Program-made: the position numbers and the translations under genes
DNA from: a virus
Taxonomy: Duplodnaviria; Heunggongvirae; Uroviricota; Caudoviricetes
DNA length: 64,000 nucleotides
Direction: 5' to 3' (one strand)
Virus record (IMG/VR): IMGVR_UViG_3300011772_000022
Location: 16,259 to 80,258 of that record
Notes under the pieces: generated by a model
What the model saw: only the letters and a program-made list of their open reading frames with translations
Told to the model about the DNA's origin: nothing
The model's database searches: none
Shown: in pieces, positions 1,698 through 34,627 of the stretch
How the letters are laid out: every line of letters begins with the position of its first letter
Position numbering within the stretch: position 1 is the first letter of the stretch

Positions 1698-1950
1698 CAG
1701 TTGTGTTACGGATATACCGTTTCCGTATACCCTCTTATAGTTTCCTATAAGCTCAGACTATATCTTCAGGTTTTACCTGCTCCCCGTTTCGAGTTCACTT
1801 GAACCCTACGTCTCTCGACTAGTCGTTGAACCTTCGTGTATAGGTGTCTCTCGACGACTATAGTTGCTTGGCTGCTGATTACCCTCGACTTTACGTTAGG
1901 GCTTCCCAGACAATTAGAGGAGTTTATAAAGGAGACCTAGTTGTTGGTTA
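1698..1950 (-). other. putative self-splicing group I intron interrupting polymerase motif A (boundaries approximate)
   Basis: The upstream ORF ends ..NWWMTVGDLTNN* (T7-like WVQAGID with the catalytic Asp). The downstream ORF resumes ..GQMELRMTAHL after a ~250-nt gap. Joining after the U of GAT-T and before TA-GGT (following an intron-terminal G) gives WWMTVGD-LGQ-MELR, matching DYSQIELR. ACTGTAGG is present at both junctions. Confidence 0.5.
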
Positions 1951-3481
1951 AATCTCCTACAGTCATCCACCAGTTACGCTGAAGCTCTTGGAATGCATCA
2001 CGAATCTTCCATTGGATTTCATAACCAGTATGTTCCGGAGTACCTTCGTCACATGGTTCGAACTCTTTATCTTTCTCATTGTATCTAACAGGAACAACCG
2101 TAAACATAAACGCTTTCTGGATTGCCACCTCTAAAGCATTCGGGTCATCCTTATGTTCCTCACGTAATGGGTCAACCACCTTGTCATATTCTTCAATTGT
2201 AATGAAGTCCTTGAAGATGGCGCCACTCGGTAGATTCTGAAGGTTCGGTCCAGATGACGATAGACGACCTGTAACCGTACCTGTTTGATGGAAGGAGCCA
2301 TGTACCCGACCATCAATATCGATTGCCTTGATGATTCCTTTTACGTAAGTAGATTCAGTCTTTTTCAGTTTACGATATTTCAAGATTAATTCGATAAGTT
2401 CTAAGCCTTCCATTGTCAGGTCAGCCAGTGTTCGTTCTTCCGCAGCTTCTCGACCCATTTTCAATAACTCTTTTAGTGTAGCAGCATCAACCTTAACTGC
2501 CCCCTTGTCCGTCTTCGCAATGATAGGAAGTTTCTTCTCGGCATGTAGTACCTCTGCTAATTGTGGTCCACTTCCAATAGAGAATTCGTGTCCGGCTAAA
2601 GCGAAGATTTGTTTCTCAAGGATATCCATTTCTTTTAAGCAGCGGGCACCGATTGCTTCCAGTACCTCTTGGTTAACAGGCATACCACGTCGTTCTATCC
2701 CTTGAAGTACCCCAACGAACGGCATCTCCACTCCGAATAGAACATCAATAAGTTTCTGCTTTTGTAACAACGGATAGTATTTGATGAACAGTTTAGCAGT
2801 CGCCACAATATCCATCAGTGCGTACGGTAAGGTTAATGTAGCTGAAGCCTCATGGAACCGAAGTTTCTTCCCGAGAATCTTATCGAGCTTATTCATATCC
2901 ATCCCAAGGTCTTCTTTCGCCACGTACTTCAAACCGAAACGTTGACGTTCTTCTTTTACGAGCCATGCCATTACCTGTGTATCAGCACAGGATGCTCTTT
3001 TTGGTAGCTCTTCAATATGTTTCGCCATTGCTTCTTTCGTTTCCGGAGCCACCCATTTCGGTACACATAATTTCGGTCGTAAATCAATACCAACATTCAA
3101 GAAGATATCAGCATCATATTTCAGGTTGTGGGCAATTATCATCTTGTCGAAGTCCAAGAAGAATTCCTTCAGTGCCTCTACAACCATTTTGCGATTTAAG
3201 TATCCAGTCGTTCCCACAACCTTCTCTTGGTCAAGGTGGTACATCGTTGGAATGTACGCCGCATATTCTAGTTTCGTAATGTCATCGTCGATAATACCAA
3301 TACCGATACCACAAATTTCTGCTTTTAAGAATGATAGGTCAGTAGTCTCTAAATCGTACACAATATATTTTGCTTTCTTCAGCCGTGCTAATAACCTTTC
3401 TAATTGCATATGATACACAAGGATATTCTCAGCGTAATCAGGTAATTCTCTTACAGGTCTCTCCAATACTGGTGCTCCCAT
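1951..3481 (-). CDS. DNA polymerase I family, exon 1 (3'-5' exonuclease motifs YDLETTDL, HNLKYD, YALMD; thumb/fingers ..TGRLSSSGPNLQNLP)
   Basis: Conserved Exo I-III and polymerase motifs. Start set to MGAPVLE (ATG 3479-3481) behind RBS AAGAGGAGGAAACGGAA. Confidence 0.8.
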
Positions 3482-3575
3482 TTCCGTTTCCTCCTCTTTA
3501 AGTGAAAAGAAAGTACGTTCAGGTGTTGCGACCATGACGTACTTTCTTATAAGTGTTAAGTTTTAGTGTGCTAGA

Positions 3576-14905: not shown

Positions 14906-16249
14906 CTAAGAAAAGATGATTGACCCACTGTCATCGTCCTCCGGCTCATCCATAATAATGTCCTCTGCCAGTCGTCCGAAGTTTTTCGTATTTTCAAAGT
15001 CCCAATGAATAACAACGTTCGGCGTATTACCGTCACGAACAAGCATCAGGTTAATTCCCATTAAGTTCATCGCTCTCATCTCTTCATCACGGAATGGCTC
15101 AATAACCACATCCGAATCCTGTGCAAATGATTGTGCGAATGAGATTGTCGATTGGTCATTCGCTTTACCAACCTTACCAGTCTTCGCCGATAGCTGAGAA
15201 GATTGAATGATTGGTTTACCAGTCTTACGAGCAACACGTTTTAGTTTACGAGTAATGTTTGTAATCTTCTCCCACATTGCCGTTCCACCTTCTTCATCAT
15301 CTAAAAGGTAAGAACCGTCCACGATAACAAGGTCTGGATTGTATTCCTCAATCTTCGCCTGTACCGCTGATACACCATATCCATGTGAATCATCACCAGA
15401 GATAATGAAGTCACCAATGTCTTCATCTTTTAATGCATCCAGTCCGGCAAAGTATTCTTCCTTGTGTGTATCAGAAAGCATACCTTCCTTGTAATGCGTT
15501 GCATTCATCATGAAGTACAGAACATCGGCACGGGTTGCGATTTCATTGTTACCCATCTCTCGGGTAATGAATAAGACACGGAACCCTTGCTTGATTGCAT
15601 AGTTCGAAATTAGTACCTCAAGATACGTTTTACCTGTTTTCGGCATGGCAACAATGGAAATTAATTGCCCATCTTGAATTCCGCCCGTTGCTTTATCGAT
15701 TGGCTCAATACCTGCATAAGAGATACCAATAAGACCAAGACCATCTGCACGTTTGTTATATGCTTCTTTACGCTCTTCAACCTCCGTATTCCAGTGAAGG
15801 TCTTTTGCCACGTTTACTTCAGTTTGGATTTGTGACATCATACGAGTCAGAAGTTTTTCAGTTCCTTCCTCATCTTCCTTCTTCAGCAGCTCAACCGCCT
15901 GCATAATACCATCCGTCAGTTTCTCACGTTTACGTTTACGACGAACCTCTTTCATCCAATACGAAAGTGGCTCCACCGTGTCCGTTAATTTGAATCCCGG
16001 GAAGTATTGGTTAATGATTTCTAAAGATGCCGTCTTCTTATGTTCGTCATAATGTTCGAACAGGAAATGTGCCATCTGCTCTGCCACGGAACCGTCCTTG
16101 AAGAATACGTATCGGTATCCTCCCTCTTGTCGCTTCTCACGTTTTAGAATCTTGTTCTTCGTAAGCTCTCCTATTGCATTACCTCGGATTGCCTCCTTCA
16201 GGAGTTCCATCTCTTCACTCAGCCGTCTTTCTTCCATCATCTTGCTCAC
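14906..16249 (-). CDS. replicative DNA helicase (DnaB family)
   Basis: RecA-like core with Walker A AMPKTGKT, the FITREM motif, and an N-terminal DnaB-like domain. Confidence 0.8.
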   Translation of the reverse strand: MSKMMEERRLSEEMELLKEAIRGNAIGELTKNKILKREKRQEGGYRYVFFKDGSVAEQMAHFLFEHYDEHKKTASLEIINQYFPGFKLTDTVEPLSYWMKEVRRKRKREKLTDGIMQAVELLKKEDEEGTEKLLTRMMSQIQTEVNVAKDLHWNTEVEERKEAYNKRADGLGLIGISYAGIEPIDKATGGIQDGQLISIVAMPKTGKTYLEVLISNYAIKQGFRVLFITREMGNNEIATRADVLYFMMNATHYKEGMLSDTHKEEYFAGLDALKDEDIGDFIISGDDSHGYGVSAVQAKIEEYNPDLVIVDGSYLLDDEEGGTAMWEKITNITRKLKRVARKTGKPIIQSSQLSAKTGKVGKANDQSTISFAQSFAQDSDVVIEPFRDEEMRAMNLMGINLMLVRDGNTPNVVIHWDFENTKNFGRLAEDIIMDEPEDDDSGSIIFS

Positions 16250-16656
16250 TCTCCATAATGATAAATTTCACCTACATGCTGCACCCATTTCTCTTTACGT
16301 TTGTTTTCTACGGAAGCATGTAATGGATTATTATAAAAGTAAAAATGTATATGTCGTCGAGAAAGTAACATTTCTTTCTCCTTATTATCCTTCATAAAGG
16401 ACAACTTGGTATACGGAAAATCAACGTCGTCAAGTTTACCTTGTATGACCGCCTGTTCCTTTTCATCGTAACCGTGCCCGACCAAGTAAACACCAATACC
16501 ACGGTACATGATTGTATCCAACACCGGGACTGACTTCTTGTTCACTCGCAAAGATTTAGCGAACCCAAATAGTTTGGATTCGCTAAGGATGACGAGATTG
16601 TCAAGGTCAATCACAATGGTTGGTGCAAGCTCATTGCTTATGTCACCACCTAGCAT
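16246..16656 (-). CDS. hypothetical protein (136 aa)
   Basis: ORF coupled to its neighbours. Confidence 0.5.
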   Translation of the reverse strand: MLGGDISNELAPTIVIDLDNLVILSESKLFGFAKSLRVNKKSVPVLDTIMYRGIGVYLVGHGYDEKEQAVIQGKLDDVDFPYTKLSFMKDNKEKEMLLSRRHIHFYFYNNPLHASVENKRKEKWVQHVGEIYHYGE

Positions 16657-17358
16657 TTAAACCCCTCCATATTGTTCTCGTATTCTTCTTGCTTCCTGTA
16701 TTTTACGCCAATCCGGAAATGAGGATTGGTCCTCAAAATATAGTTTAATCGTGTTGCCTTCAATTAAAGATGCAACGGATACACCATACGTTTGTGATAA
16801 CATCGTAAGGGAAGCATTTGTCGTAAAGATTGTGGGTAGTAATCGATTGGTACGGTAGCGAATCAGTTCATCAAATACAGATGGAGCTAGTTCGCTGCGC
16901 TCTGATTGGAACCCTTTACCTACATCATCGACAACTAAAAAATCGCTATTCTTCACTCGTTTATCGTACAGGTCTGCTTTGCCGGAATCATACCATGCTC
17001 CTGCATAGAGATTAATGATTCCTGCAAGGTTTGCGAATTGCGTTCGGAATCCCTGCCTGATAGCAGCCTTTTGGACCGATACGGCAAGGTGGGTTTTGCC
17101 CACCCCGTTCATACCGTATAAAAATATTCCAGTACCTTCTTTACGATGGGTACGGATTCTAGCCGCATAATCGACCAGAGTTTGTGCCGTTTCAAAACGT
17201 TTGGGAATGATTACTCCACTATTATCTCGTATAGGGAAAGTTCGAAAATCGGCGGGATAGTATTTTTCTAATATGCCATGTCTTCTTTGTGTTTTAGGTT
17301 CCAAAGGACCGAAGACGTCACTCCCAATTAAAGTTTCCAGTTCCGTCATTGCCATCAT
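16657..17358 (-). CDS. helicase loader, DnaC/IstB-like AAA+ ATPase
   Basis: GMNGVGKTHLAVSV Walker A; FLVVDDVG Walker B. Confidence 0.7.
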   Translation of the reverse strand: MMAMTELETLIGSDVFGPLEPKTQRRHGILEKYYPADFRTFPIRDNSGVIIPKRFETAQTLVDYAARIRTHRKEGTGIFLYGMNGVGKTHLAVSVQKAAIRQGFRTQFANLAGIINLYAGAWYDSGKADLYDKRVKNSDFLVVDDVGKGFQSERSELAPSVFDELIRYRTNRLLPTIFTTNASLTMLSQTYGVSVASLIEGNTIKLYFEDQSSFPDWRKIQEARRIREQYGGV

Positions 17359-18364
17359 TCTTTTTCACCTCTGGTTTGTACTCTCTCGCACTCGATTTCT
17401 TTTGTTTTGCCGCTGAAGGATTCAGCATTTGAGGGATTATCGTGTTTCTATAAGCAAAGAAAACACCGAAGTTAGGGTAACCCTCTGGCAAATACGTGAG
17501 TTGTTTGTAGTTTTGTAGATAGAAGTCAATCGCATCAGCAACCTGTTCTGGCTCATATGCCGTCAGCAAGTTCTTGCATTGTCCTCTGTCCTTGTTCGTT
17601 GAAGCCGGAGATGTAATCCCCAGTTCCAATTTATACATATGTCGGAAGTAGGCAACTAGATGATTCGCATTCCATTTGCTCCGTGGGAGGTCTTGGAATC
17701 CTTTACCTCGTTTGTCCTTCTTCGTCGGTTTTTCTTCTGGTGCATATAGTTCATCTAAAACGTTCGGGATATCTTCTTCCGCTACCTCGTTTGGTTTGTC
17801 GGAAGGCATAACCACTTTAATGTTCTTTAGTCGTTCTGTGTCATCGGTAAAACTCATATCAGGTTCCGCCTCTGTCTTTTTTTCCTGTGGCGGTTCAGGT
17901 ATAGGTTCTTGATTCGGCTTTTGCTTCGGCTCCGGAGGTGGCGGTGGTGTCATACCTTCCTGTGCGACCATGTAAACAGAGGTGTGATTCTCTCTGGTGT
18001 AACCACCAAATGAACCCTTCTTGGTACAGACCACATAACCATCATCCATTGCTCGTTTGACCCCATCACTACATGCAGGTCTTGATAAACCAGTTAGCTT
18101 TTCAAATTGCGACAGGGACACCGCATCTTCTTCCTTGTAGACGGGCGCCCCTGTATCTTGGTCAATATGGCTTACCCACCCGTAAGTTTTACGGAACAAT
18201 GCCAACAAGACCTTTAATTCAGATAAACTTTTAATGTTGGGTAATGCTTCATCGAAAAACTCGTTGGGTATTGAAGTAAACCCTTTCATGTCCAACCGTG
18301 GTTTAAATCCGTTAAATTTGTTTCCCTCTTCCATACGTTTCATCCCCCATGAATATAATGTCAT
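17318..18364 (-). CDS. putative replisome organizer / replication initiation protein (N-terminal DnaD-like HTH, Pro-rich linker)
   Basis: The N-terminus resembles the phage replisome-organizer domain; PPPPPEPK linker. Sits directly upstream of the DnaC/DnaB pair. Confidence 0.45.
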   Translation of the reverse strand: MTLYSWGMKRMEEGNKFNGFKPRLDMKGFTSIPNEFFDEALPNIKSLSELKVLLALFRKTYGWVSHIDQDTGAPVYKEEDAVSLSQFEKLTGLSRPACSDGVKRAMDDGYVVCTKKGSFGGYTRENHTSVYMVAQEGMTPPPPPEPKQKPNQEPIPEPPQEKKTEAEPDMSFTDDTERLKNIKVVMPSDKPNEVAEEDIPNVLDELYAPEEKPTKKDKRGKGFQDLPRSKWNANHLVAYFRHMYKLELGITSPASTNKDRGQCKNLLTAYEPEQVADAIDFYLQNYKQLTYLPEGYPNFGVFFAYRNTIIPQMLNPSAAKQKKSSAREYKPEVKKNDGNDGTGNFNWE

Positions 18365-25377: not shown

Positions 25378-26796
25378 TTAACGTTTTTTGATGTCTAATA
25401 AATTCATAATCATATCAGAGTAGCCCGTGATAAGTTTCTGTGGCTCCCCGTTCTCCTTTGTTTTCCAACGTAGTCCTTCATGGATTAATACCTTTGTCAT
25501 TTCATATAGGTCTTCACTTAAAGTCTCATCAATATAGATAACATCATCCCCAAAGTGATATAGACCTTTTACGGCGATACCATTGCTTTCTAATTCTGAA
25601 GCGAATCTAACAGGGGGTAAATCATCTTTTCGTTCCAAGCCTAATACCTTTGCTGCTTTTTCTTCTGCTACCTCTAAGTCTAGGACAGGAGCAGACGTTG
25701 CAGCAGTTGTAGATTGTTTAACTTTAGACGTGTTCTTAATCACATCATCTACTTTCGGGAATCCAATGCTACCTAAGAAGTATCTCCATGCAGTAGGAAG
25801 TTCGATTAAGTGGTAACCCATATTTTCAGCTTCCTTATTCTTATCATTGTTTTCCAGAGAGGAAAGCATTAGCTTCTCTACGTCTACTGAATGACATTCT
25901 GCTACCGCCTGCTTCCATAGAGAGCGCATTGTATCCAAGTCTGTATCGCAATCATAGGCAACCATTGGTCCTTCACGAAGGTCAGCATATTTAGAAGCCT
26001 TCTCTTTATCCATCGCACCGTAAATGAAGTTCTCGATAAATTGCGTATCATATTCCATTTCTTTAAATACAACTCTTCCGATTTTCATTAATGCATCTGA
26101 GATGTTTACTTTCGTTCTATCTCGGTTCATCAGAGAGCGGTCTGTCAGATTGTATGCATATTTAATTTCCAGTGGGCTTTCGAAGCCAAAGAATTCTTCC
26201 TTCTTGATTTCTCCAATAAGAACCCCACGAATCCATAACTCATGATAGCGACCCGGTAGTACGGAATTACGAACCACATCATCTTGGTCAATATCTTCAA
26301 ATGGAGCAAACCCTTTAACGGCATGTAAGAATTCTTCTTCAGATACCTTCGCTTCAACCAGTGTTCCAACCCCTCGGTCATTCGGTTCGACTTCAATAGT
26401 CAAGACGTTTGTGTTGTGCTCTGTTTGCACCATTACGCCTTTGAATGTGTAGCCTACCGTTTCGACTTTGTGTTCGATATTATTTCTCGCCATTGCTAAA
26501 AGAAATAATTTCCACCCTTCACCGAAGTTACCTAATCCGTCTTCGTCATCTCGTTGTTCAGATTCTCCAATGTATAGATATCGTTTATCGAATCCTGTGT
26601 GTTGGTCTTTCAGTACGCCTACGCCTCTTTCATTGTCATAGAACAGTGTAGCCTTCTTACCAGATTTAACAGTTCCATATGCGATGTTTTGTGCTGCTTC
26701 TCGAAGTCCTTCCATTGCGCCCCAGTAGCTCACATAGTTTTCTGTTAGTCCCGTTGGAATAATTTCGTTACAAATCTCTAATTTATCAGTTGTCAT
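25378..26796 (-). CDS. hypothetical 472-aa protein with a weak GHKL-ATPase-like N-terminal signature
   Basis: EGLREAAQNIAYG / YDNERGVGV / DGLGNFGEGWK loosely resemble the N, G1 and G2 boxes of the Bergerat fold. Tentative. Confidence 0.5.
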   Translation of the reverse strand: MTTDKLEICNEIIPTGLTENYVSYWGAMEGLREAAQNIAYGTVKSGKKATLFYDNERGVGVLKDQHTGFDKRYLYIGESEQRDDEDGLGNFGEGWKLFLLAMARNNIEHKVETVGYTFKGVMVQTEHNTNVLTIEVEPNDRGVGTLVEAKVSEEEFLHAVKGFAPFEDIDQDDVVRNSVLPGRYHELWIRGVLIGEIKKEEFFGFESPLEIKYAYNLTDRSLMNRDRTKVNISDALMKIGRVVFKEMEYDTQFIENFIYGAMDKEKASKYADLREGPMVAYDCDTDLDTMRSLWKQAVAECHSVDVEKLMLSSLENNDKNKEAENMGYHLIELPTAWRYFLGSIGFPKVDDVIKNTSKVKQSTTAATSAPVLDLEVAEEKAAKVLGLERKDDLPPVRFASELESNGIAVKGLYHFGDDVIYIDETLSEDLYEMTKVLIHEGLRWKTKENGEPQKLITGYSDMIMNLLDIKKR

Positions 26797-26837
26797 TTTA
26801 AGCCCTCCAATAGTTTTATATGTGTGAAGTAATACCT

Positions 26838-26845
26838 GTTATAAT
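26838..26845 (+). promoter_or_regulatory. extended -10 promoter element TGTTATAAT (plus strand) inside the palindromic motif AATACCTGTTATAATAGGTATGT
   Basis: TGn plus TATAAT consensus; third copy of the 13346 motif. Confidence 0.35.
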
Positions 26846-26851
26846 AGGTAT

Positions 26852-27090
26852 GTCGTTCGATGTACCCTTATGTTAACCCATATTGGGGAAGATGTAAAGA
26901 GGTTTACCGAAACTATTGGTTTGCTTTTTGTTTACCAAAAATCAACAGTGACAAAAGCAAAAAATATATGGTAAGTTTGTATCATATTATGTGTCGAGTC
27001 GCATAATATAGATTAAGGATTGAATCTCTGGTTCGTCGTTAAGACCCATATCTTATAAAGTCTACCCTCGGTTGGGGTAGACCTTTTTCT
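26852..27090 (+). ncRNA. candidate plus-strand non-coding RNA (~240 nt) between the extended -10 promoter and the intrinsic terminator
   Basis: No RBS-preceded ORF. Bounded by the TGTTATAAT promoter (26838-26845) and the hairpin GTCTACCC-TCGGTT-GGGTAGAC plus T5 (27059-27090). It is the only long non-coding stretch in the replication region. Confidence 0.3.
27059..27090. terminator. bidirectional rho-independent terminator (8-bp stem; T-run on plus, TTTATAA on minus)
   Basis: aaagtctaccctcggttggggtagacctttttctt. Confidence 0.5.
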
Positions 27091-27155
27091 TGGTTTGATG
27101 TATACTAGGCAGGCGAGTAAATCACGCTAACCTTTTTCCTTTTTATCAACACGGT

Positions 27156-27191
27156 AAAGACCACCCCTATTCGGAGTGGTCTTCTTTTTCG
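27156..27191. terminator. hairpin AGACCAC..GTGGTCT plus TCTTTTTC overlapping the stop of the FtsK-like gene
   Basis: aaagaccacccctattcggagtggtcttctttttcg. Confidence 0.4.
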
Positions 27192-28639
27192 TTCAAGTCT
27201 TCAGCTCTGAGAATGTGAAAGGTTGAGTCGCCCAAGTCTTCTGGAAATTCAATCGGAGGTGTGTCGATTGGAGGAAGAGAAGATTCGAACACCTCTCTGT
27301 CATATTGTACCCGCATTTCCTCCATATATTCATGTGCCTTCTTCGTAGATAAAAATGGTACCTGAACCTCCGTTGTTAGATGACCAGATTGCAGGATAGC
27401 CCGCCCGGGAATATTCGGATTCAATTTAGCAGCTCCATCCTCTTGTTCACCTAGTAAGATTCGAGAGTTCAATTCATTCCGTACCCTGAATGCAACCGTT
27501 ATCGGGATATTGGCTTTACTATCACCCGGAAGTACCTTTGCATCCGGACGTTGAGTTGCCACGAATAAATGTATCCCTAATGCTCTTGCTAATCGTAGCA
27601 GCCTGTTAATCATGGAATGGGTGTATTCTAAAAGGTCTTTGGCTTTCATCATTCCCTTAGGTGGAGCCGAATTACCTTTAGTAGGTACAATGTTCAATCC
27701 ATAGATATAATCCTGCAAGTGTTCCGGGATGTTCCATAGCTCACTCTTCCCTACGCTTTCTGGTGAGAGTTCCGCCAGTTCATCGATAACCAACAAAATG
27801 TATGGTAGGTGCCCGACTGCTTCACGATACTCTCGAATGTTTGTGACCCCTGCATTGTAGAAGTCAGCCTGACGTTTATCCATTTCGGCTTCCACCGTTC
27901 GTAGCACTTCAAATGCTGAGAAGGCTTCCTTTGAGATTTCCCTGACATGTGGAGCATTTTTAAATAATTGAAATTCAAGACCTCCCTTTAAATCAATCAT
28001 ATAAATTTCTAAGTCGGTCGGTGTCTTCAGTGACATGAGTGATGTAAGAGCCTGCCGTACGAATACGGATTTACCTCCACCAGTTTCCCCACCGACCAAG
28101 ATGTGTGGACGTTTACCTAAGTCAACAATCTGTAAACCTTTCTTGCTCTCTCCTATAATGATAGGAAGTTCCATTCCTTCGGCTCCATCAAATCGTCTCG
28201 TGCTGAAAGTTTCTTGATGTTTTAAATGACCAGTTGAAATTTCCATTACGCAATACTCATCCTCCTGATACGTTCCAATCTCGGCATTGAGGTTTAGTTC
28301 AATAGCCGGAAGTTTACGGTTAATATCATCGATAGACATACCTGCGGGAAGTTTAAAATAGGCTTTGTATAAATAGTCCTCCTTTCTCTCCTCTTTTATA
28401 TAAGAAGGCGTGTATCTTTTGGTCTCACCTAAAAGCGGTTTGTGTTCCTTGTATAATCCGAATGACTCCCAGTTGTTAGCCAAGCGATAAGTTAACGGTG
28501 ATTTGAAGCGGTGGGTCTGATAAATTTTAAACCCCGCATAAGATGTTAAAGCAATGCCACCAACCTTAAATACATTTGCACCAACAATTTTCATAGCGGT
28601 TCCCAATACCGCCGGAGTAAGAATACTCATCAGTCCCAC
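27167..28639 (-). CDS. FtsK/SpoIIIE-family DNA-translocase-like ATPase with an N-terminal membrane anchor
   Basis: N-terminal hydrophobic segment; Walker A VGGETGGGKS; Walker B LLVIDE; the conserved ATQRP motif of the FtsK family. Confidence 0.75.
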   Translation of the reverse strand: MGLMSILTPAVLGTAMKIVGANVFKVGGIALTSYAGFKIYQTHRFKSPLTYRLANNWESFGLYKEHKPLLGETKRYTPSYIKEERKEDYLYKAYFKLPAGMSIDDINRKLPAIELNLNAEIGTYQEDEYCVMEISTGHLKHQETFSTRRFDGAEGMELPIIIGESKKGLQIVDLGKRPHILVGGETGGGKSVFVRQALTSLMSLKTPTDLEIYMIDLKGGLEFQLFKNAPHVREISKEAFSAFEVLRTVEAEMDKRQADFYNAGVTNIREYREAVGHLPYILLVIDELAELSPESVGKSELWNIPEHLQDYIYGLNIVPTKGNSAPPKGMMKAKDLLEYTHSMINRLLRLARALGIHLFVATQRPDAKVLPGDSKANIPITVAFRVRNELNSRILLGEQEDGAAKLNPNIPGRAILQSGHLTTEVQVPFLSTKKAHEYMEEMRVQYDREVFESSLPPIDTPPIEFPEDLGDSTFHILRAEDLNEKEDHSE

Positions 28640-28640
28640 C

Positions 28641-28838
28641 TCACAAGAATAAGTTTAATACAGGTAACATGAAGGCAACCTCTTTGGCTAGAATGTACCA
28701 AAGAATCGTAATGGTACCAACCCGAATCCATTTGACAAGTTTAGTCTTATTCTGGGTGATAGCAAATTTCTCACCAAGCCATCCTCCGAATATTGCCCCA
28801 GAACCTTTTGCTACGATAATCGATATTGTCTCAACCAT
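28641..28838 (-). CDS. small membrane protein (65 aa, 2 TM helices)
   Basis: Hydrophobic; immediately upstream of and coupled to the FtsK-like gene. Confidence 0.45.
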   Translation of the reverse strand: MVETISIIVAKGSGAIFGGWLGEKFAITQNKTKLVKWIRVGTITILWYILAKEVAFMLPVLNLFL

Positions 28839-28936
28839 GTCTATCCTCTCCTTATGGACAAGTTTGTTATACCCATATACTCTAGGTAGCCTCCGGCGAT
28901 TTTTCGTTAGGAAAAATCCGTTACCTAGAGTATATG

Positions 28937-29236
28937 CTATGAGGTTGCCTGTGTTACGTAAGGGACAGGTTCCTCATCAGAATGGGCTTCACCTTGAAAG
29001 TGCCCCTCCATTTCCATGTACATTTCTTGCAGCTCAACTGCTTCATTAATTAACAGGCTTACATATAATCGGTATTTATCGGAAGTTGTTGGCATGAGTT
29101 CTGGTTTTGTTGCTAAATCCTCCTTCAATTTCTTGATTGTCTTCAGTGCCGTATCGATGTTCTTATCGTACGCTTGAAACCATTTTAAATCTTTATCAGT
29201 ATATGAAGTATGCATTCTAAAATCTCCGCCTTTCAT
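28937..29236 (-). CDS. hypothetical protein (99 aa)
   Basis: ORF. Confidence 0.45.
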   Translation of the reverse strand: MKGGDFRMHTSYTDKDLKWFQAYDKNIDTALKTIKKLKEDLATKPELMPTTSDKYRLYVSLLINEAVELQEMYMEMEGHFQGEAHSDEEPVPYVTQATS

Positions 29237-29241
29237 CCTAG

Positions 29242-29382
29242 TTATTTATTAGTCTTTTTAACGGTAGCAATTGCTCTCCGATTGACCCATACCTGCGTTA
29301 CCTTTCCTGCTTCGAACATGACCCTGAATTCCGCCACCTTCATTAGGTCATCAAGGATTGTAATTTTCGTTGGTTTATTCAT
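29242..29382 (-). CDS. small hypothetical protein (46 aa; below the track cutoff)
   Basis: RBS ATAGGGGAGATTGACG before the ATG; MNKPTKITILDDLMKVAEFRVMFEAGKVTQVWVNRRAIATVKKTNK. Confidence 0.3.
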   Translation of the reverse strand: MNKPTKITILDDLMKVAEFRVMFEAGKVTQVWVNRRAIATVKKTNK

Positions 29383-29496
29383 CGTCAATCTCCCCTATCA
29401 TTCTGGTGTGTTTTGTTTCTTAGTCTAATATATGTTATATGTGTTATTTAATGTCTGTCCGGACCTGAACTATTTAATTTTCTGCACAACGAAAAA

Positions 29497-29523
29497 AGAC
29501 ACCCTATCGCAAAGTGTCTTTTT
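29497..29523. terminator. bidirectional rho-independent terminator (AGACAC..GTGTCT flanked by an A-run and a T-run)
   Basis: gaaaaaagacaccctatcgcaaagtgtctttttaag. Confidence 0.55.
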
Positions 29524-29958
29524 AAGATGAACTTATTTAGAAAGAGGACGACTTATGAAACGGAATCCATAAGCAGTCAGATATACAAGTGGTGAGTAGG
29601 CACCTGTATGTCATGATTCAAGTTTAGGATGAAGCTGCATTATACCCCATTGGAAGAAATCCCATAGAAAAGAGTTACCCTTAGGAATATTATACTATGA
29701 ATTCGTTTTATTGCCAACATTTTCTTGTATGAGCCTTACGAATTTTCGCTCCTCTTCCTTTACCTGTTCAATCATTCTTTGAAAATACTTATCTGGCAAT
29801 TCGTATTCCCCCTCAGTGTTTTGTTTTACAGTATATGAGTTAGTAGACAAGTTTATTCATCCTTTCGTTTTGTAATGGATGGACAACCTTCTTGTACCAT
29901 ACATTCCGCCGAGTCTCGCCCCAAGGCGAAGGGAGCGGAATGTATGCTTTCTATATAC

Positions 29959-30435
29959 CTATGACGTGACTAGTAAGTAGGTGAATACGACTCCTGTAAG
30001 GACAAAGATGACAGCCTCAGATATTTTCCCTGTTCTATATGTGATAGGTGCTTTGTATTTCTTTTTACTAAATGGTGCAAGTAAGGGTACCCCTGATTTG
30101 GAGAAGTAATCCCCTAGTATATGAGAGGCGTATCCGAATATTAATCCCGCCGAAAAGGATAATGGTAATACAATTGCGGGGATTAATGCTAATGCTCCTA
30201 CGATTAATGTACACGGAATGGAATGAGTGAATCCTCGATGACCACATAATTTATTAACCAATTTGGATATCGGTTTTAATCTTCTTCCTATATAAGAATT
30301 AGGATGGTCAATGTCAGGTAATGTTGAACCTAAAATCACTCCGCCGTAAAACCCAATCGAGAATGGGGCATTTGCTACTCTCATTACTCCTTGCGCCAAG
30401 GTAACCGATGTAAGCATATGAGTTTGATACAACAT
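29959..30435 (-). CDS. YdjM/DUF457-family membrane-bound metal-dependent hydrolase
   Basis: Multi-TM with HRGFTHS and HILGD motifs; RBS AAAGGTGGGATTTTT before the ATG. Confidence 0.6.
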   Translation of the reverse strand: MLYQTHMLTSVTLAQGVMRVANAPFSIGFYGGVILGSTLPDIDHPNSYIGRRLKPISKLVNKLCGHRGFTHSIPCTLIVGALALIPAIVLPLSFSAGLIFGYASHILGDYFSKSGVPLLAPFSKKKYKAPITYRTGKISEAVIFVLTGVVFTYLLVTS

Positions 30436-30484
30436 AAAAATCCCACCTTTCTACAGTATAGTCAGAAGGGTAGGATTTAACACC

Positions 30485-30563
30485 GCAATCTTTAGTTTAT
30501 TTATAGCTTTATATTGTTAGTTAAAATTCTTAACCTCATGTGGTAAAGAATCTTTACCTCATT
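30485..30563. repeat. conserved ~78-bp intergenic element, copy B
   Basis: gcaatctttagtttatttatagctttatattgttagttaaaattcttaacctcatgtggtaaagaatctttacctcat; same orientation as copies A and C. Confidence 0.8.
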
Positions 30564-30843
30564 CACTCTTTTTGTGTATCTCACCTGTCATCGTTATTTC
30601 CCAGATAGTCGGTTGAATCAAGAAATAATATTCAGGTGTCGCAAGCGGATTCGGTATGCATTTAGTACGCAGAGTCCATTTGATTGAATAGTTATCAAGA
30701 GGGACACCTTTATCTTCGAAGTATCCCGTAATGGCATGTTGCATCCGATTTGTTTCTAGATGTATCTGGTCATCCGTCGGTGCCTCAGTGCATCCCCATC
30801 TGGTCGATAACATTGCGCTGCTACCTATGAATTCATCTCTCAA
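30559..30843 (-). CDS. hypothetical protein (94 aa); its 3' end overlaps repeat copy B
   Basis: ATGA coupling with the upstream gene supports it, but the C-terminus runs into the repeat. Confidence 0.35.
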   Translation of the reverse strand: MRDEFIGSSAMLSTRWGCTEAPTDDQIHLETNRMQHAITGYFEDKGVPLDNYSIKWTLRTKCIPNPLATPEYYFLIQPTIWEITMTGEIHKKSE

Positions 30844-31199
30844 AAGTCATCTTCCTTTCGTGGTTCATTATCTGTATACACCGTAGCGCATAACATAAAG
30901 CGAATAGGGAGTAGTGATTCGTAGCGTAGTTCGCTTGAAACGAATTCCGGTACATCATCTTCAGGGGCATGTTTCTTATACATGAAATCACCAAGGAATA
31001 AGTTAAGGTGGGTACGTCTCCTGCCATCCGTTCTAAAATCCGTGAATGCTATCATAAGTTCATGCTTCAATGCGTGTTTTATACTATCTATGAATCGTGG
31101 GTCGTCTCCATGTAATGCTAATGCTTCTCGGCTTACATCTCTATACGCCGTTAGGGTCTCAATTTTCTCAACTGCTTTCAGGTCATCTCGTCTTTTCAT
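30840..31199 (-). CDS. hypothetical protein (start re-assigned to MKRRDDL)
   Basis: RBS TAGGAGGAGAAAGAGG before ATG 31197-31199. Confidence 0.45.
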   Translation of the reverse strand: MKRRDDLKAVEKIETLTAYRDVSREALALHGDDPRFIDSIKHALKHELMIAFTDFRTDGRRRTHLNLFLGDFMYKKHAPEDDVPEFVSSELRYESLLPIRFMLCATVYTDNEPRKEDDF

Positions 31200-31220
31200 C
31201 CTCTTTCTCCTCCTATAGAA

Positions 31221-31245
31221 AAAGCAGACAATTAAGTCTGCTTTA
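31221..31245 (-). terminator. rho-independent terminator (AAAGCAGAC..GTCTGCTTT plus TTTCTATAGG on the minus strand)
   Basis: aaagcagacaattaagtctgcttt overlapping the stop of 31243..31539. Confidence 0.45.
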
Positions 31246-31539
31246 CTTTTGTAGTTTGGTAATCTCTCTTGTATCATGACGTAAGCTCAAGTTCGGTTCC
31301 TTCGCAATCGGAATATTATACTTCGCACGAATCTCATTCCACCATGCTTCATCCTCTTTCATAAGTTCAGCACGTTGGTCTTCAATCTGCTTCAGCATAT
31401 CGTTGTTCGCTTTACGTCTGTAATTAATAGCGATAATTTCCTTTAGTTCACCCTTACTAATAACCGCAAGAGTTTCTACAGAAGTGTCAGGACCGTTACC
31501 TAAATCCATGCCGATAATTTCTTTTTTCTCTTCAGCCAT
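31243..31539 (-). CDS. hypothetical protein (98 aa)
   Basis: ATGA-coupled to the SPFH gene. Confidence 0.45.
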   Translation of the reverse strand: MAEEKKEIIGMDLGNGPDTSVETLAVISKGELKEIIAINYRRKANNDMLKQIEDQRAELMKEDEAWWNEIRAKYNIPIAKEPNLSLRHDTREITKLQK

Positions 31540-32420
31540 TACTTCTTCACCTCACCTTTCAATAATTCGCTTGGCATGTTAATGATTGAGCTTCCACCAC
31601 TTACAAGCGGTTGCTTACCATCCCATTTCTTAGCGATTTCATAGTTGATGATGTCAGGAGATAATGATTGTTGTAACTCTTTATTGGCTTTCGCTTCACC
31701 TTGAGCAGCGATAACCTTTTTATCTGCCTCACCTTGAGCCTCTGCACGTTTCTTATCGGCTTCAACCTTAGCAGTTTCTAATGCTACCTTCATAGTTTCT
31801 TGTGCCTGTTGAGCATCTACTTTCGTATTGATTGCTTTCATAGCACCTTCGTCAGGTCGGATTTCACCAAGTGTAAATTTCTCAAGGTTGATACCATCTA
31901 CCTTTAATCGTTTTGCTAGGTTGTCCTGTACCTGTGTTTGAATCTCACCACGTTTTTCACCATATACTTCTAAAATGCCATATTTAGACGTTACTAATTG
32001 TATTGCATCCTGAAGTTGAGATTTGATATATGTTGCTTCAATCTGTTCTGAGGTTTGACGTTTGAACTTCGTGAAGATGTGTGGCAGCTTTGAAGCCTCC
32101 ATATTGTACGAATACATCACATCCAAGTTCACTGGCTTACCTTCAGAAGTGGATACGTTTAATGAATGGTCTTCATCTTTCGTCTTCTTTAGGTATACAG
32201 TTTCAGTCGATACCGGATAAGCCGTTACTGACTTCCACGGTAGAACAGGTTTCAAACCTTGTCCGAGTGTTTCTTCTTCGAGTCCACCCATCTTATTGTA
32301 TACAACACCTGCATACCCCGGGGTAATTTGTACTGAGCAAGCAGCGAATCCTCCGACCGCCAATGCAATTGTGCCACCGATTACGGCAGCGCCTCTTTTC
32401 CAAGTTTTAAATGGATTCAT
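31539..32420 (-). CDS. SPFH/band-7 (stomatin/prohibitin/HflKC-like) membrane protein
   Basis: N-terminal TM helix, SPFH domain, and a long Ala/Gln/Glu/Lys-rich coiled-coil (KVDAQQAQETMKVALETAKVEADKKRAEAQGEADKK). Confidence 0.75.
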   Translation of the reverse strand: MNPFKTWKRGAAVIGGTIALAVGGFAACSVQITPGYAGVVYNKMGGLEEETLGQGLKPVLPWKSVTAYPVSTETVYLKKTKDEDHSLNVSTSEGKPVNLDVMYSYNMEASKLPHIFTKFKRQTSEQIEATYIKSQLQDAIQLVTSKYGILEVYGEKRGEIQTQVQDNLAKRLKVDGINLEKFTLGEIRPDEGAMKAINTKVDAQQAQETMKVALETAKVEADKKRAEAQGEADKKVIAAQGEAKANKELQQSLSPDIINYEIAKKWDGKQPLVSGGSSIINMPSELLKGEVKK

Positions 32421-32562
32421 CCTTCTTTTCCTCCTCGTCCTCTTTTGAGATTCGAGGGGTTAGAAGATTCTTAGTCTTTTCTCCTACAACCTCGCCGAAA
32501 AATTTGGATAATACCCACCACAAACAAATCGCAGAAATGATTATAAATAGAATCCAAGCCAT
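32407..32562 (-). CDS. small membrane peptide (start re-assigned to MAWILFIII), coupled upstream partner of the SPFH gene
   Basis: RBS GAGAGGTGGTGAGAAGAAA before the ATG; one TM helix plus an acidic tail; overlaps the SPFH start. Confidence 0.4.
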   Translation of the reverse strand: MAWILFIIISAICLWWVLSKFFGEVVGEKTKNLLTPRISKEDEEEKKDESI

Positions 32563-32969
32563 TTTCTTCTCACCACCTCTCGTCCTAATACCTATTATAA
32601 GATGTATTAGCAAATATTACAAGACATAAAAAAGAAACCTACCACATATAATGATAGATTCCTCTTTTAACTTAATTGTGTATCGCCTTTAGGCTTTTGA
32701 TTTTTTGGTTTTTTGGGTGTAACACATCGACGTGCGACGAAGGATAAAGGTCTATGCTAATCTATAAACCAAAGATGCGGTACGGTTCTTAGCTCCACCG
32801 TGGAGAAATACGTTATCCTGCGTATCCAAACCTCCTAGTTGCGTTAAGAGGTTTCATAGAGATGAGTAAAGAGGGTTCAGTACCCTCTAACTCATGCAAT
32901 TATCGCCGCATGGGGTCGTTGTAATTACAAACTAATTGTACCACATATTTCCTGCCTGTACAATCCCTA

Positions 32970-32998
32970 TAGACAACGGTTCTTCCAACCGCTATAAT
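32970..32998 (+). promoter_or_regulatory. sigma-A-type promoter for the HNH gene: -35 TAGACA, 17-bp spacer, -10 TATAAT
   Basis: tAGACAacggttcttccaaccgcTATAATga, about 20 nt upstream of the HNH ATG. Confidence 0.5.
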
Positions 32999-33015
32999 GA
33001 AATAAAATATGTAGG

Positions 33016-33543
33016 ATGGAGGAACACAAGTTGGCTTCATGGAATATTGGTGACCAAGTATTTTATTTTACTATCTTAGAAAAAACAAATGAAAAGAAAA
33101 GAGGGTATTATCTTTTTAGAGCAAGATGTGTATGTGGAAAAGAAGAGTTAATTCACAAAGGACAGATATTCCCAGACAGAAAAACATCATGTGGTTGTAT
33201 TCGACATAACAAATTAGTGGCAAGAAATAAGTCACATGGTCTTTCTAAACATCCGTTATACGCTCGATGGAAGCAAATTCGTAATCGATGTCACAATCCT
33301 AATTCAGATAAGTACATATTCTATGGAGCAAGAGGTATCGAGATGTGTGAAGAATGGAGGTCGAACCCACAAGCGTTCTTTGATTGGTATTTGAGTAAAA
33401 CAGATGACCTTTCATTAACCGTAGACCGTAAAGATAATAATGGTAATTATGAACCTGATAATTGTCGTCTCATTACCATACAGGAACAACAAAGAAATAG
33501 GAGACCTCGTTCCTGTTATAGAAGAGAAAAGGATGCTCAGTGA
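33016..33543 (+). CDS. free-standing HNH homing-endonuclease-like protein (only plus-strand gene in the window)
   Basis: SKHPLYARWKQIRNRCHNPNSDKYIFYGARGIEMCEEWRSNPQAFFDWY is the phage HNH_3/AP2-type endonuclease signature; it has its own promoter and terminator. Confidence 0.75.
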   Translation: MEEHKLASWNIGDQVFYFTILEKTNEKKRGYYLFRARCVCGKEELIHKGQIFPDRKTSCGCIRHNKLVARNKSHGLSKHPLYARWKQIRNRCHNPNSDKYIFYGARGIEMCEEWRSNPQAFFDWYLSKTDDLSLTVDRKDNNGNYEPDNCRLITIQEQQRNRRPRSCYRREKDAQ

Positions 33544-33558
33544 GCATCCTCTTTTTAT
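33531..33558. terminator. bidirectional rho-independent terminator shared by the HNH gene (plus) and the holin gene (minus)
   Basis: aaaaggatgctcagtgagcatcctctttttat; T-runs on both strands. Confidence 0.55.
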
Positions 33559-33776
33559 AGCAAGTTGTTATCTTTTAATACTTCTTTTTGAGCAATGCCC
33601 TTCGAAGTTAGGTACGTATTCTTCCACCCACAATAAAGGATGTACACACCAGATACAACCGCAACAATATTGTTCGCTAAACCTTCGTCGATAGTTTGAT
33701 AACCTACTAAGTTAAGAACGGAGTTAATTACTGCAATAACTAAAAGGATGTAGCGTGAGATTGAAGCCTTGTCCAT
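33555..33776 (-). CDS. holin (start re-assigned to MDKASISRY; the track M is a GTG)
   Basis: RBS GGAGGTGGGAATT before the ATG; ~73 aa, one or two TM helices, charged C-terminus; immediately upstream of the endolysin. Confidence 0.6.
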   Translation of the reverse strand: MDKASISRYILLVIAVINSVLNLVGYQTIDEGLANNIVAVVSGVYILYCGWKNTYLTSKGIAQKEVLKDNNLL

Positions 33777-33797
33777 AATTCCCACCTCCTTTCAATA

Positions 33798-34604
33798 TTA
33801 CTCTTTGATTTGGCAGTACCAACCGTTGTCATCCATGAATTTCTTGAATTCAGAAATTGCAGGTTCAGACAGTCCGCCAGTAACGAAGAACATGTCTCCA
33901 CGACCAGTGAATTCAGCTCGTGCCCACCATTTACGGTCAAGCATGTATTTAGAAACCTTAGCAATCGCTTCAGCATCATTGAATCCACCTGTTTCGAAAT
34001 ACTTAGGCTTTGCATCCTGACCAAGGAACCAAGCAAGGTCTTTGTCACCTACTAATTTATTACGGTCCACTTTGCCGATACCATCCATCCAACCGCCTGT
34101 TTCGCCATCAGCACATTGCCAGATGTCACAAGGGTAGGCAGGTTTTGGTCCGCCGTAACGTGGAATCCATAAGAAGTCAGCCTTCAAGTTATTCAAACCA
34201 TACTTCGGATACATATGGTGAGAAATGTACACGCCGACTTTCCAACCTTTAGATTTACAACGGTCAATGAATGCCTGAGATGCAGCAGCTAGATTAGTAG
34301 CTCCACAAGATGCTAATGTGTCATCCTCAACATCTAACACTAAGAACTTAGCATGAGGATTCGTTCTAGCCATGAAATCATCTGCTTCAATGATTGCATC
34401 TTTAACAGATACATAACATCCGTAAGCGTAAGCAGCATGAGGTACATTACGAGCTTCTAAAGCTGCAACGTATTCTTTGTACTTCTCGTCGATTTTGTTA
34501 GAGCCATATTGCACACGACAAATTACAAGACCGACCTGAGGAGCGACCTTATCCCAGTTTGGATTACCATTCCATTTGGAAACATCAATAATTTCGTCAC
34601 CCAT
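33798..34604 (-). CDS. endolysin, glycoside hydrolase family 25 muramidase with a C-terminal cell-wall-binding region
   Basis: IIDVSKWNGNPNWDKVAPQVGLVICRVQYG and the acidic catalytic residues of GH25; start MGDEIIDV behind RBS GAGAGGTGGAATTTAAA. Confidence 0.75.
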   Translation of the reverse strand: MGDEIIDVSKWNGNPNWDKVAPQVGLVICRVQYGSNKIDEKYKEYVAALEARNVPHAAYAYGCYVSVKDAIIEADDFMARTNPHAKFLVLDVEDDTLASCGATNLAAASQAFIDRCKSKGWKVGVYISHHMYPKYGLNNLKADFLWIPRYGGPKPAYPCDIWQCADGETGGWMDGIGKVDRNKLVGDKDLAWFLGQDAKPKYFETGGFNDAEAIAKVSKYMLDRKWWARAEFTGRGDMFFVTGGLSEPAISEFKKFMDDNGWYCQIKE

Positions 34605-34627
34605 TTTAAATTCCACCTCTCAAAATA

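Follow-up and report, generated by a model that had tools for sequence, protein, structure and literature searches.

Small hydrophobic proteins encoded next to an FtsK-like ATPase and an SPFH protein between the lysis and replication genes of a tailed phage

We analyzed a 64,000-nucleotide stretch of a tailed phage genome (IMG/VR record IMGVR_UViG_3300011772_000022, positions 16,259 to 80,258; the whole stretch is called the window here) and, within it, the genes for an FtsK/SpoIIIE-like ATPase, a YdjM-family membrane hydrolase and an SPFH/Band-7 protein that lie between the lysis and replication modules. On the account that we favor, with moderate confidence, this region consists of three autonomous cassettes, namely a small membrane peptide with the SPFH protein, the YdjM gene and a unit around the FtsK-like ATPase, plus one selfish HNH insertion, and it is part of a host-RNA-polymerase-type early/middle region in a previously unsequenced lineage of tailed phages of ~100 kb. 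A preliminary description, made from the letters alone, had grouped the same genes into a single co-functional accessory island. All of the open reading frames (ORFs) that it named were present at its coordinates in our ORF listing, and the location between lysis and replication modules was confirmed by the identities of the flanking genes (holin and endolysin on one side; Rep-O-like protein, helicase loader and DnaB on the other). The single island itself was not borne out, because the HNH insertion is a separate event, promoter- and terminator-like sites lie between the units, and the units differ in their phyletic distributions.

The evidence for separate cassettes comes from promoter- and terminator-like sites and from phyletic distribution. 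As the preliminary description had stated, each small membrane ORF is tightly coupled to its large neighbor: the ORF of a 51-aa peptide overlaps the start of the SPFH gene by 14 nt, and a gap of 10 nt separates the ORF of a 65-aa protein from the FtsK gene. YdjM, a soluble ORF designated p99, the small hydrophobic ORF and FtsK follow one another in the same order in the related loci L001-L003, L007-L009, L168 and L170, and this order can also be read from the contig ends of L004 and L171. The set is thus found in most of the ~100-kb relatives examined, whereas the SPFH gene is limited to the window, L001 and L002. The order is kept in phages whose proteins are only 38-52% identical, which argues against the term "accessory" if it is to mean that the genes were acquired together not long ago. 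Promoter-like sites or hairpins mark unit boundaries before the 51-aa peptide, behind the ORF downstream of YdjM and after FtsK (Table 1), and the stretch 29492..29850 separates the YdjM unit from the FtsK unit. Two observations weigh against this account: the operon boundaries rest on a promoter consensus scan that returned 22 sites versus 32 expected from shuffled sequence, which is no excess, and the partner ORF was not called in L005 and L006, where YdjM, p99 and FtsK are present. The preliminary description had also held these genes to be unnecessary for a basic lytic cycle, which we can support at the level of the lineage: in a 93-kb relative (L169, 8776..11362), a GHKL ATPase gene stands right behind the lysis cassette and YdjM, the small partner, FtsK and SPFH are all missing, so the cassettes are dispensable within the lineage.

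Few accessory genes of Gram-positive phages are annotated as often, and understood as little, as the FtsK/SpoIIIE-like and SPFH genes. These kinds of genes are known and common in phages, and the conserved pairings, together with a GHKL-zincin protein encoded beside the region, are modest new variants. The conserved, coupled small membrane partners nevertheless turn two vague annotations into two defined two-component units, both of which can be cloned, co-purified, modeled as complexes and deleted. The gene identities, folds, motifs, coupling and synteny are observations, and membrane topology, complex formation, DNA pumping and all biological roles are predictions.

The identity of the ATPase was upheld by Pfam FtsK_SpoIIIE (PF01580), which matched residues 171-278 of the ORF 27167..28639 at 95.3 bits against a cut-off of 24, and the PHROG 1358 match spans residues 54-450. 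The start is more likely the ATG at 28630, which lies behind GAGGTGGG, 10 nt past the stop of the 65-aa ORF. Among homologues, the Walker A residues G181, G186 and K187, the Walker B residues D283 and E284, and Q360 are invariant, and the remaining residues of the T359-Q360-R361-P362 motif (T359, R361 and P362) are nearly so. The AlphaFold2 model (pLDDT 86) shows the alpha + beta motor, with an acidic C-terminal tail modeled at low confidence. In a Foldseek search, the model matched TcpA at 1.5e-26 over ~380 columns with 24-26% identity and the FtsK motor at ~1e-24 with a TM-score (target) of 0.6-0.66, and in a sequence search of the PDB the two were nearly equal (TcpA 3.5e-26, FtsK 7e-26). 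The P-loop alpha + beta fold, the Walker motifs and TQRP are common to the window protein, TcpA of Clostridium perfringens plasmid pCW3 (PDB 6O1W-6O1Z) and the FtsK motor (2IUS, 6T8B), while the window protein differs from both by a ~35-residue insert between Walker B and TQRP, identified by eye, and by its acidic C-terminal tail.

The window protein carries one PF01580 domain, preceded by a short, weakly hydrophobic N-terminal stretch, a layout that may correspond to that of TcpA. FtsK and SpoIIIE have in addition a four-transmembrane (4-TM) domain and a gamma winged helix, and the window protein has neither: no match was obtained to PF13491, the N-terminal 4-TM septum-targeting domain, or to PF09397, the gamma domain that reads FtsK-orienting polar sequences or SpoIIIE recognition sequences (KOPS/SRS), and the precomputed Pfam annotation of the 34 best homologues lacks the gamma domain as well. 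TcpA occurs in the context of a relaxase and a type IV secretion system (T4SS), whereas the window ATPase is encoded by a large phage, and no relaxase, rolling-circle replication (RCR) initiator or T4SS gene was found among the neighboring window ORFs or in L001-L009. Since it lacks the 4-TM and gamma domains as well as relaxase or T4SS neighbors, the protein is not a true FtsK/SpoIIIE, and it cannot be shown to be a coupling protein either.

Position and orthologues suggest that the 65-aa protein encoded ahead of the ATPase belongs to the SpoIIIAC/AD family. Its C-terminal hydrophobic helix is clear from hydropathy (1.76) and the N-terminal one is weaker; it aligns with its positional orthologues as a two-helix protein with a short charged loop, and thereby shares the layout of SpoIIIAC and SpoIIIAD (PF06686; ~65-70 aa, two hydrophobic helices, short charged loop). 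A small hydrophobic ORF overlaps or abuts FtsK in seven distinct relatives (L001, L002, L003/L004, L007-L009, L168, L170 and L171) and also in L086, and in L002, L007, L168, L170 and L171 the positional orthologue overlaps the FtsK start. Pfam SpoIIIAC matched the positional orthologues of L003 (8.6e-08, above the cut-off), L168 (7.8e-4) and L171 (1.1e-3), and a profile of the partner family retrieved PF06686-positive proteins from 1.8 billion sequences; a word-indexed search with the partner-ORF profile yielded nothing beyond the family used as input. Several results count against this assignment. The window protein itself had no match to PF06686 at E<=10, its hhalign comparison with the SpoIIIAC-positive relatives reached a probability of 31% (P 5e-4), and in the recombinase-bearing element L010 (9790..11867) the ~72-aa ORF ahead of the FtsK-like ATPase is not hydrophobic. 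SpoIIIAC and SpoIIIAD are encoded in the spoIIIA sporulation operon, whereas the 65-aa ORF is phage-borne and stands upstream of an FtsK-type ATPase; our literature search found no paper linking SpoIIIAC/AD to phages. We also observed an unrelated recombinase-bearing element (L086, 2735..4353) in which a ~72-aa ORF of the bona fide SpoIIIAC family (Pfam 5.4e-07) lies directly upstream of an FtsK-like gene.

At the head of the FtsK unit, a 48-aa ORF and p99 precede the 65-aa ORF, and neither matched a family in Pfam or PHROG. Orthologues of p99 with 43-50% identity precede the FtsK gene in L001-L009, and p99-like sequences were recognized by eye in L168, L170 and L171. Together, the products of the unit may constitute a TcpA/FtsK-type hexameric double-stranded-DNA pump with intact motifs and no sequence-reading gamma domain. 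The Gly/Ala-rich N-terminal helix and the SpoIIIAC/AD-like partner would hold the ATPase at the membrane, where it would move DNA at or across a membrane. The preliminary description had called the protein membrane-anchored; the homology to FtsK stands, and the anchoring is plausible only. The N-terminus, with a helix at residues 20-41, is weakly hydrophobic (hydropathy, KD19, at most 1.48), lineage homologues are alike in this respect, and the first 22 residues are modeled with low confidence, all of which speaks against a firm anchor.

As for purpose, the handling of phage DNA in sporulating hosts, be it transport into the forespore or exclusion from it, is the leading single candidate, which we put forward tentatively on the grounds of small acid-soluble spore protein (SASP) genes in relatives (described below), the SpoIIIAC/AD family link and the SpoIIIE-type motor. 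Genome entry, replication or segregation, and exclusion of competitors are the alternatives. A link of phage FtsK/SpoIIIE genes to DNA translocation or sporulation has previously been suggested, only speculatively (PMC3359378, PMC4113786), and spoIIIE is among the sporulation genes carried by phages (PMC10294663). On the other side, phages of hosts that do not sporulate carry FtsK-like genes too (54 records for Mycobacterium, 10 for Listeria and 8 for Staphylococcus), and a sporulation-specific role therefore cannot be general. If the unit does act in sporulating cells, it would offer a molecular handle on phage persistence in spores.

A cytoplasmic role for the ATPase, as a DNA-metabolism factor that acts with the GHKL ATPase and the replication genes in concatemer resolution, segregation or replication-coupled translocation, the small ORF being incidental, is rather unlikely in our estimate. 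It would accord with the weakly hydrophobic N-terminus and with a motor as close to FtsK as to TcpA. In the window and in L001-L006, the FtsK gene is followed by an invariant 19-nt element and then by the GHKL gene, with the replication genes further downstream. The Bacillus-phage FtsK/SpoIIIE-like proteins of BtCS33 (ORF22), gamma/W-beta-like phages, phiCM3 and SP-15 belong to the same family, phrog_1358; in small temperate Bacillus and Geobacillus phages the gene abuts replication/relaxation genes, and in phage Fah it is delayed-early (PMC4113786). The window gene, by contrast with those of the small temperate Bacillus phages, is coupled to the SpoIIIAC/AD-like ORF and p99, and it is the conservation and translational coupling of this small hydrophobic partner in the seven distinct relatives and L086 that argues against an incidental ORF. 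Furthermore, the GHKL and FtsK genes are 3-7 ORFs apart in L168, L170 and L171, FtsK is present and the GHKL gene absent in L007-L009, and the GHKL gene occurs among DNA-metabolism genes, without FtsK, in an Exiguobacterium phage and a Moorella phage. A functional coupling of FtsK with the GHKL protein, which we had considered, was weakened by these distributions, and a membrane-held pump remains our preferred reading of the FtsK unit.

The second two-component unit comprises the 51-aa single-pass peptide and the SPFH protein. The Band-7 identity given in the preliminary description is secure (Pfam Band_7, 104.4 bits against a cut-off of 23.6). The protein consists of an N-terminal signal-anchor with a lipobox-like GFAAC, the SPFH domain and an Ala/Glu/Lys-rich helical region of ~60 residues; prohibitin 1/2 gave the best sequence matches in the PDB (residues 18-245), and NCBIfam HflK matched weakly. 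We rejected the designation as a lipoprotein, which is the PHROG name, since the Gram-positive lipobox fits only the window and L001 and the Cys is present in only 13 of 23 relatives; the lipobox is thus not a family feature, and the N-terminus was treated as a signal-anchor. Transmembrane segments are strong in both partners (KD19 2.35 for the peptide and 1.93 for the SPFH N-terminus).

To place this pairing in context, 72 phage loci encoding SPFH relatives were fetched, 46 of them non-redundant. In 41 of these 46, the SPFH gene begins no more than a few bases from the end of a small ORF (28-102 aa, mostly 39-62 aa) whose product has an N-terminal TM segment and a charged tail. Among other genes of these loci the rate was 15 of 156 (10%), by a looser criterion. 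The 51-aa peptide had been likened to the NfeD/YuaF-type partners of bacterial stomatins. We found no NfeD domain in it with Pfam or NCBIfam, and only ~24 residues follow the TM segment, which leaves no room for the NfeD OB-fold (PF01957); the peptide forms a separate conserved class. The comparison is valid for gene position only, since in stomatin-NfeD operons of the YuaF-FloT type the membrane partner is likewise encoded directly upstream of the SPFH gene, whereas the window partner has 51 aa and no OB-fold. A parallel in arrangement is the Kayvirus pair MbpV-MbpS, in which a small protein with an N-terminal TM segment and a charged tail is encoded beside an SPFH protein near the lysis genes, with function unknown (PMC7150955); MbpV has 102 aa, and the overlap with the SPFH start is a feature of the window. 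Phage B13 encodes a 46-aa version of the SPFH-linked peptide, and in gp219 of Bacillus phage vB_BceM_WH1 (L011, 2797..3870) an additional TM segment at the N-terminus suggests that peptide and SPFH protein have been fused.

Translation would be coupled between the peptide and the SPFH protein. Hydropathy and the positive-inside rule predict an N-terminal anchor for the SPFH protein, whose body would lie outside the cytoplasm, and a cytoplasmic location for the charged tail of the peptide. In the host membrane, the pair may co-assemble into a scaffold of the ring or cage type that SPFH proteins typically build, and such a scaffold would corral or shield a membrane client, for example an FtsH-type protease or the secretion or lysis machinery. 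There is a precedent for small partners in Bacillus subtilis, where the small membrane proteins YdjG and YdjH recruit the SPFH protein YdjI (PMC8581546). The HflK/HflC and prohibitin cages share the SPFH domain, the N-terminal anchor and the helical region with the window protein, whereas HflK and HflC form a K/C pair and the window has a single SPFH gene and no adjacent protease gene. If the pair cages a host protease or the lysis machinery, this would be a new mode of host-membrane takeover. A more far-reaching view, in which the peptide and SPFH pair is a widespread, undescribed phage membrane-cage module and, jointly, the p99/SpoIIIAC-AD-like/FtsK unit is a virus-encoded membrane pump that moves the phage genome across the sporulation septum or blocks the pumping of the host chromosome, is in our judgment doubtful. 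Were it true, a virulent phage would ride inside the spore by means of a phage-built counterpart of the host SpoIIIE system.

The YdjM gene forms the third cassette. Its assignment as a YdjM-like membrane hydrolase was corroborated by the Pfam match (PF04307; 116.7 bits against a cut-off of 29) and by TM segments, the protein being polytopic by hydropathy (KD19 2.34); NCBIfam PRK11648 also matched at 6e-28, below the cut-off of that model. The translation contains PDIDH, HRGFTHS and HILGD, which we take to be the metal ligands of the family, and the cassette would thus supply a polytopic membrane metal-dependent hydrolase. YdjM orthologues lie upstream of FtsK in L001-L003 and L005-L009, and a YdjM called by Pfam is in the same place in L168 and L170. 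An ORF-free stretch of ~170 nt separates the near-consensus promoter from the strong terminator at the junction of the YdjM and FtsK units (fold z-score -2.4), and the interval 29492..29717 on the minus strand may encode an attenuated leader or a small RNA.

Between the SPFH and YdjM genes lie three overlapping small ORFs of 98, 145 and 94 aa, which had no family match in Pfam or PHROG. They are 27-54% identical to their L001 counterparts, compared with 94% for the SPFH protein, indicating mosaic replacement of a swapped block. The 98-aa ORF (31243..31539, minus strand), whose start overlaps the SPFH stop, resembles TIGR04116, "CXXX repeat peptide modification system protein", below the threshold of that model (1.3e-06; 28.5 bits where 50 are required).

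With the cassettes described, the proposal that all of these genes act jointly in envelope remodeling, for instance in superinfection exclusion, control of DNA entry, holin modulation or microdomain takeover, can be weighed, and we regard it as unlikely. Most of the products do have hydrophobic segments, the genes adjoin the lysis cassette, as does the Kayvirus SPFH pair (PMC7150955), and L002 retains the order peptide-SPFH, YdjM, partner-FtsK at 39-53% protein identity. Against this, L005-L009, L168 and L170 keep YdjM and FtsK and lack SPFH, other phages have the SPFH pair with neither FtsK nor YdjM nearby, and L169 does without all of the genes. The terminator and new promoter-like sites between the units, and the separate origin of the HNH insertion, point the same way. 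In a PADLOC scan the ATPase matched SspH, mad8 and HerA only at the level of the shared ATPase domain, and the nine further proteins included had no match, which gives no grounds for proposing a defense system. Our preferred account of the region therefore remains that of three autonomous cassettes and one insertion.

Least probable by far is that the FtsK-like protein serves as a TcpA-type conjugative coupling protein, through which the phage genome or a satellite would use a resident conjugation channel: TcpA of pCW3 is the best match in sequence and fold, the single PF01580 domain resembles that of Firmicutes TcpA coupling proteins (PMC5357655) and a 34% homologue in L010, an integrated element, is followed by a Replic_Relax gene, yet the TcpA and FtsK scores are practically equal, the genome of ~100 kb carries a full virion module, and the relaxase, RCR-type or T4SS genes that Firmicutes TcpA-type genes precede or accompany (PMC5357655) are lacking nearby in the window and in L001-L009.

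Table 1 Features of the region and its surroundings in the window
Feature	Position	Strand	Description
Group I intron in the PolA gene	1734..1991	-	Rfam RF00028, 80.7 bits, E 6e-19
Replication genes on one flank	14906..18364		Rep-O-like, helicase loader, DnaB
472-aa soluble protein	25378..26796	-	GHKL ATPase, transducer-like and zincin-like domains (fold search); outside the coordinates of the preliminary description
FtsK-GHKL intergenic region	26797..27166	-	Conserved blocks in relatives
Promoter-like site	26898..26870	-	TTTACA-17-TAACAT, before the GHKL gene
Invariant 19-mer	27054..27036	-	AAGATATGGGTCTTAACGA, single copy in the window
GC-rich hairpin	27082..27060	-	After FtsK; unit boundary
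FtsK/SpoIIIE-TcpA-type P-loop ATPase	27167..28630	-	487 aa; Pfam 4.8e-27; PHROG 1358 1.6e-77
65-aa hydrophobic two-helix protein	28641..28838	-	Ends 10 nt before the FtsK start; divergent SpoIIIAC/AD-like
p99	28937..29236	-	Soluble ORF, likely start 29215; head of FtsK unit
48-aa soluble ORF	29242..29388	-	Head of FtsK unit
Terminator	29523..29492	-	Strong hairpin and T-run; unit boundary behind the ORF downstream of YdjM
Near-consensus promoter	29717..29689	-	TTGGCA-17-TATAAT; same unit boundary
51-aa soluble ORF	29695..29850	-	After YdjM
YdjM-family membrane metal-dependent hydrolase	29959..30435	-	158 aa; Pfam YdjM 1e-33
Three overlapping small ORFs	30559..31539	-	98, 145 and 94 aa; packed directly behind SPFH
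SPFH/Band-7 protein	31539..32420	-	293 aa; Pfam Band_7 9e-30; PHROG 200 2e-66
51-aa single-pass membrane peptide	32407..32562	-	N-terminal TM segment, charged C-terminal tail; own ribosome-binding site
Promoter-like site	32622..32594	-	TTGTAA-17-TATAAT; unit boundary ahead of the 51-aa peptide
Non-coding leader, candidate structured RNA	32625..32962	-	Fold versus shuffles; between lysis cassette and peptide-SPFH genes
Terminator-like hairpin	32669..32627	-	19 bp with T-run; end of leader
Promoter-like site	32962..32935	-	TGTACA-16-TACAAT with TG extension; head of leader
Insertion carrying the HNH-like ORF	about 32965..33573		~590 bp; missing from L001 at the same site
Promoter-like site of the HNH insertion	32970..32998
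HNH-like ORF	33016..33543	+	175 aa; PHROG 374 at 3e-44
Bidirectional hairpin terminator of the HNH insertion	33527..33553
Lysis genes on the other flank	33555..34616		SPP1-type holin 33555..33785; GH25 endolysin 33798..34616

Every named ORF of the region is on the minus strand, the sole exception being the HNH-like ORF, and the G+C content is flat at 0.39-0.41, so the region is not a compositional island. Between the FtsK gene and the replication genes there are ~9 kb of additional small ORFs, and the replication side of the window also holds primase, helicase and PolA genes. Protein searches identified a ~97% relative on a metagenomic contig of 107.9 kb (L001), with a baseline identity to the window of 89-98%, and more distant relatives of 51-34% identity on contigs up to ~100 kb. 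No match emerged when the region was compared by megablast with 50,697 phage records, and a scan of IMG/VR with the FtsK-like protein returned no relatives. The FtsK-like and SPFH proteins matched 408 and 750 deposited phage records, respectively, with identities to any deposited phage protein of at most 30% and 42%. An apparent excess of conservation in intergenic regions over genes between the window and L001 was dropped, as it holds only relative to the swapped block of small ORFs.

The lineage is probably virulent: a scan of 185,579 species genomes with an alignment of the 472-aa GHKL protein found no relative, and so neither prophage copies nor a host assignment came out of it, and the replication genes are the phage's own. 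No integrase was seen in the parts of the genome scanned. Its hosts are probably endospore-forming Bacillota, as suggested by SASP genes in several relatives, SPP1-type holins and strong GGAGG ribosome sites. The SASP (PF00269) genes lie in the lysis-to-replication region of sister phages (L003, 1434..1604; L007, 8897..9079; L171, 8972..9151; and also L008 and L009), and none was found among the window ORFs scanned.

The leader upstream of the peptide and SPFH genes was seen only in the window and L001. Its ~300 nt are structured, with a fold z-score of -5.7 and none of 100 shuffles reaching the same stability. In a hairpin at ~32830..32850 the stem sequence differs in L001 and the pairing is kept, as judged by eye from the alignments. 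Rfam gave no match to the leader, nor to any other part of the region under study.

On the other side of the ATPase gene, the 472-aa protein had no Pfam match, and PDB searches with the protein or a profile gave nothing usable; the fold search alone worked. It shows the N-box and the G1, G2 and G3 motifs of the GHKL (Bergerat-fold) ATPases and a C-terminal minigluzincin/SprT-like zincin fold. In its family of 42 unannotated homologues the ATP-binding motifs are invariant, and HExxH is kept in 15 of 32 GHKL homologues and not in the window protein. Compared with other GHKL/GHL ATPases (Hsp90/TRAP1, the ATPase of ParE/topoisomerase II, MutL, MORC and the N-domain of T4 rIIA), it adds the zincin-like domain, and no Toprim or DNA-gate partner was seen. 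Its occurrence without FtsK in two distant phages and its separation from FtsK in L168, L170 and L171 suggest that it probably belongs with the DNA-metabolism genes.

The 19-mer between the FtsK and GHKL genes is identical in L001-L006, which represent four lineages with flanking proteins 38-51% identical to those of the window, and it always occupies this position. It is flanked by a conserved TATATTATG block (surrounding 26976..27092), and the GC-rich hairpins beside AAGATATGGGTCTTAACGA are lineage-specific and without T-runs; RNAalifold found no consensus structure for the intergenic element, since the variable hairpins do not align. A scan of three public collections for a conserved 17-mer gave 79 matches, of which two are real, both from contigs already among our loci; the others lack the flanking conserved blocks, and their number is about that expected by chance by our estimate for a random 17-mer. 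The 19-nt element could be an RNA leader or a protein-binding site.

The HNH-like gene appears to behave as a free-standing homing endonuclease that was inserted recently and has no relation to what the rest of the region does. That it encodes an HNH endonuclease, as first described, is supported by PHROGs 374, 3377 and 2081, which are annotated as such and match at 3e-44 to 3e-25, whereas Pfam (E<=0.01) and a PDB sequence search were silent. The motif region reads VDRKDNNGNY...N, with an Arg where we presume the first His of the HNH motif should stand. Homologues are present in 1091 phage records from unrelated hosts, and its absence from the ~97% relative attests to a sporadic, mobile distribution. 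A group I intron in the PolA gene of the phage fits this homing-endonuclease reading. This intron, which contains no ORF, splits the gene for the family-A DNA polymerase into ORFs 946..1689 and 1937..3535, and the Pfam DNA_pol_A profile is shared out over both.

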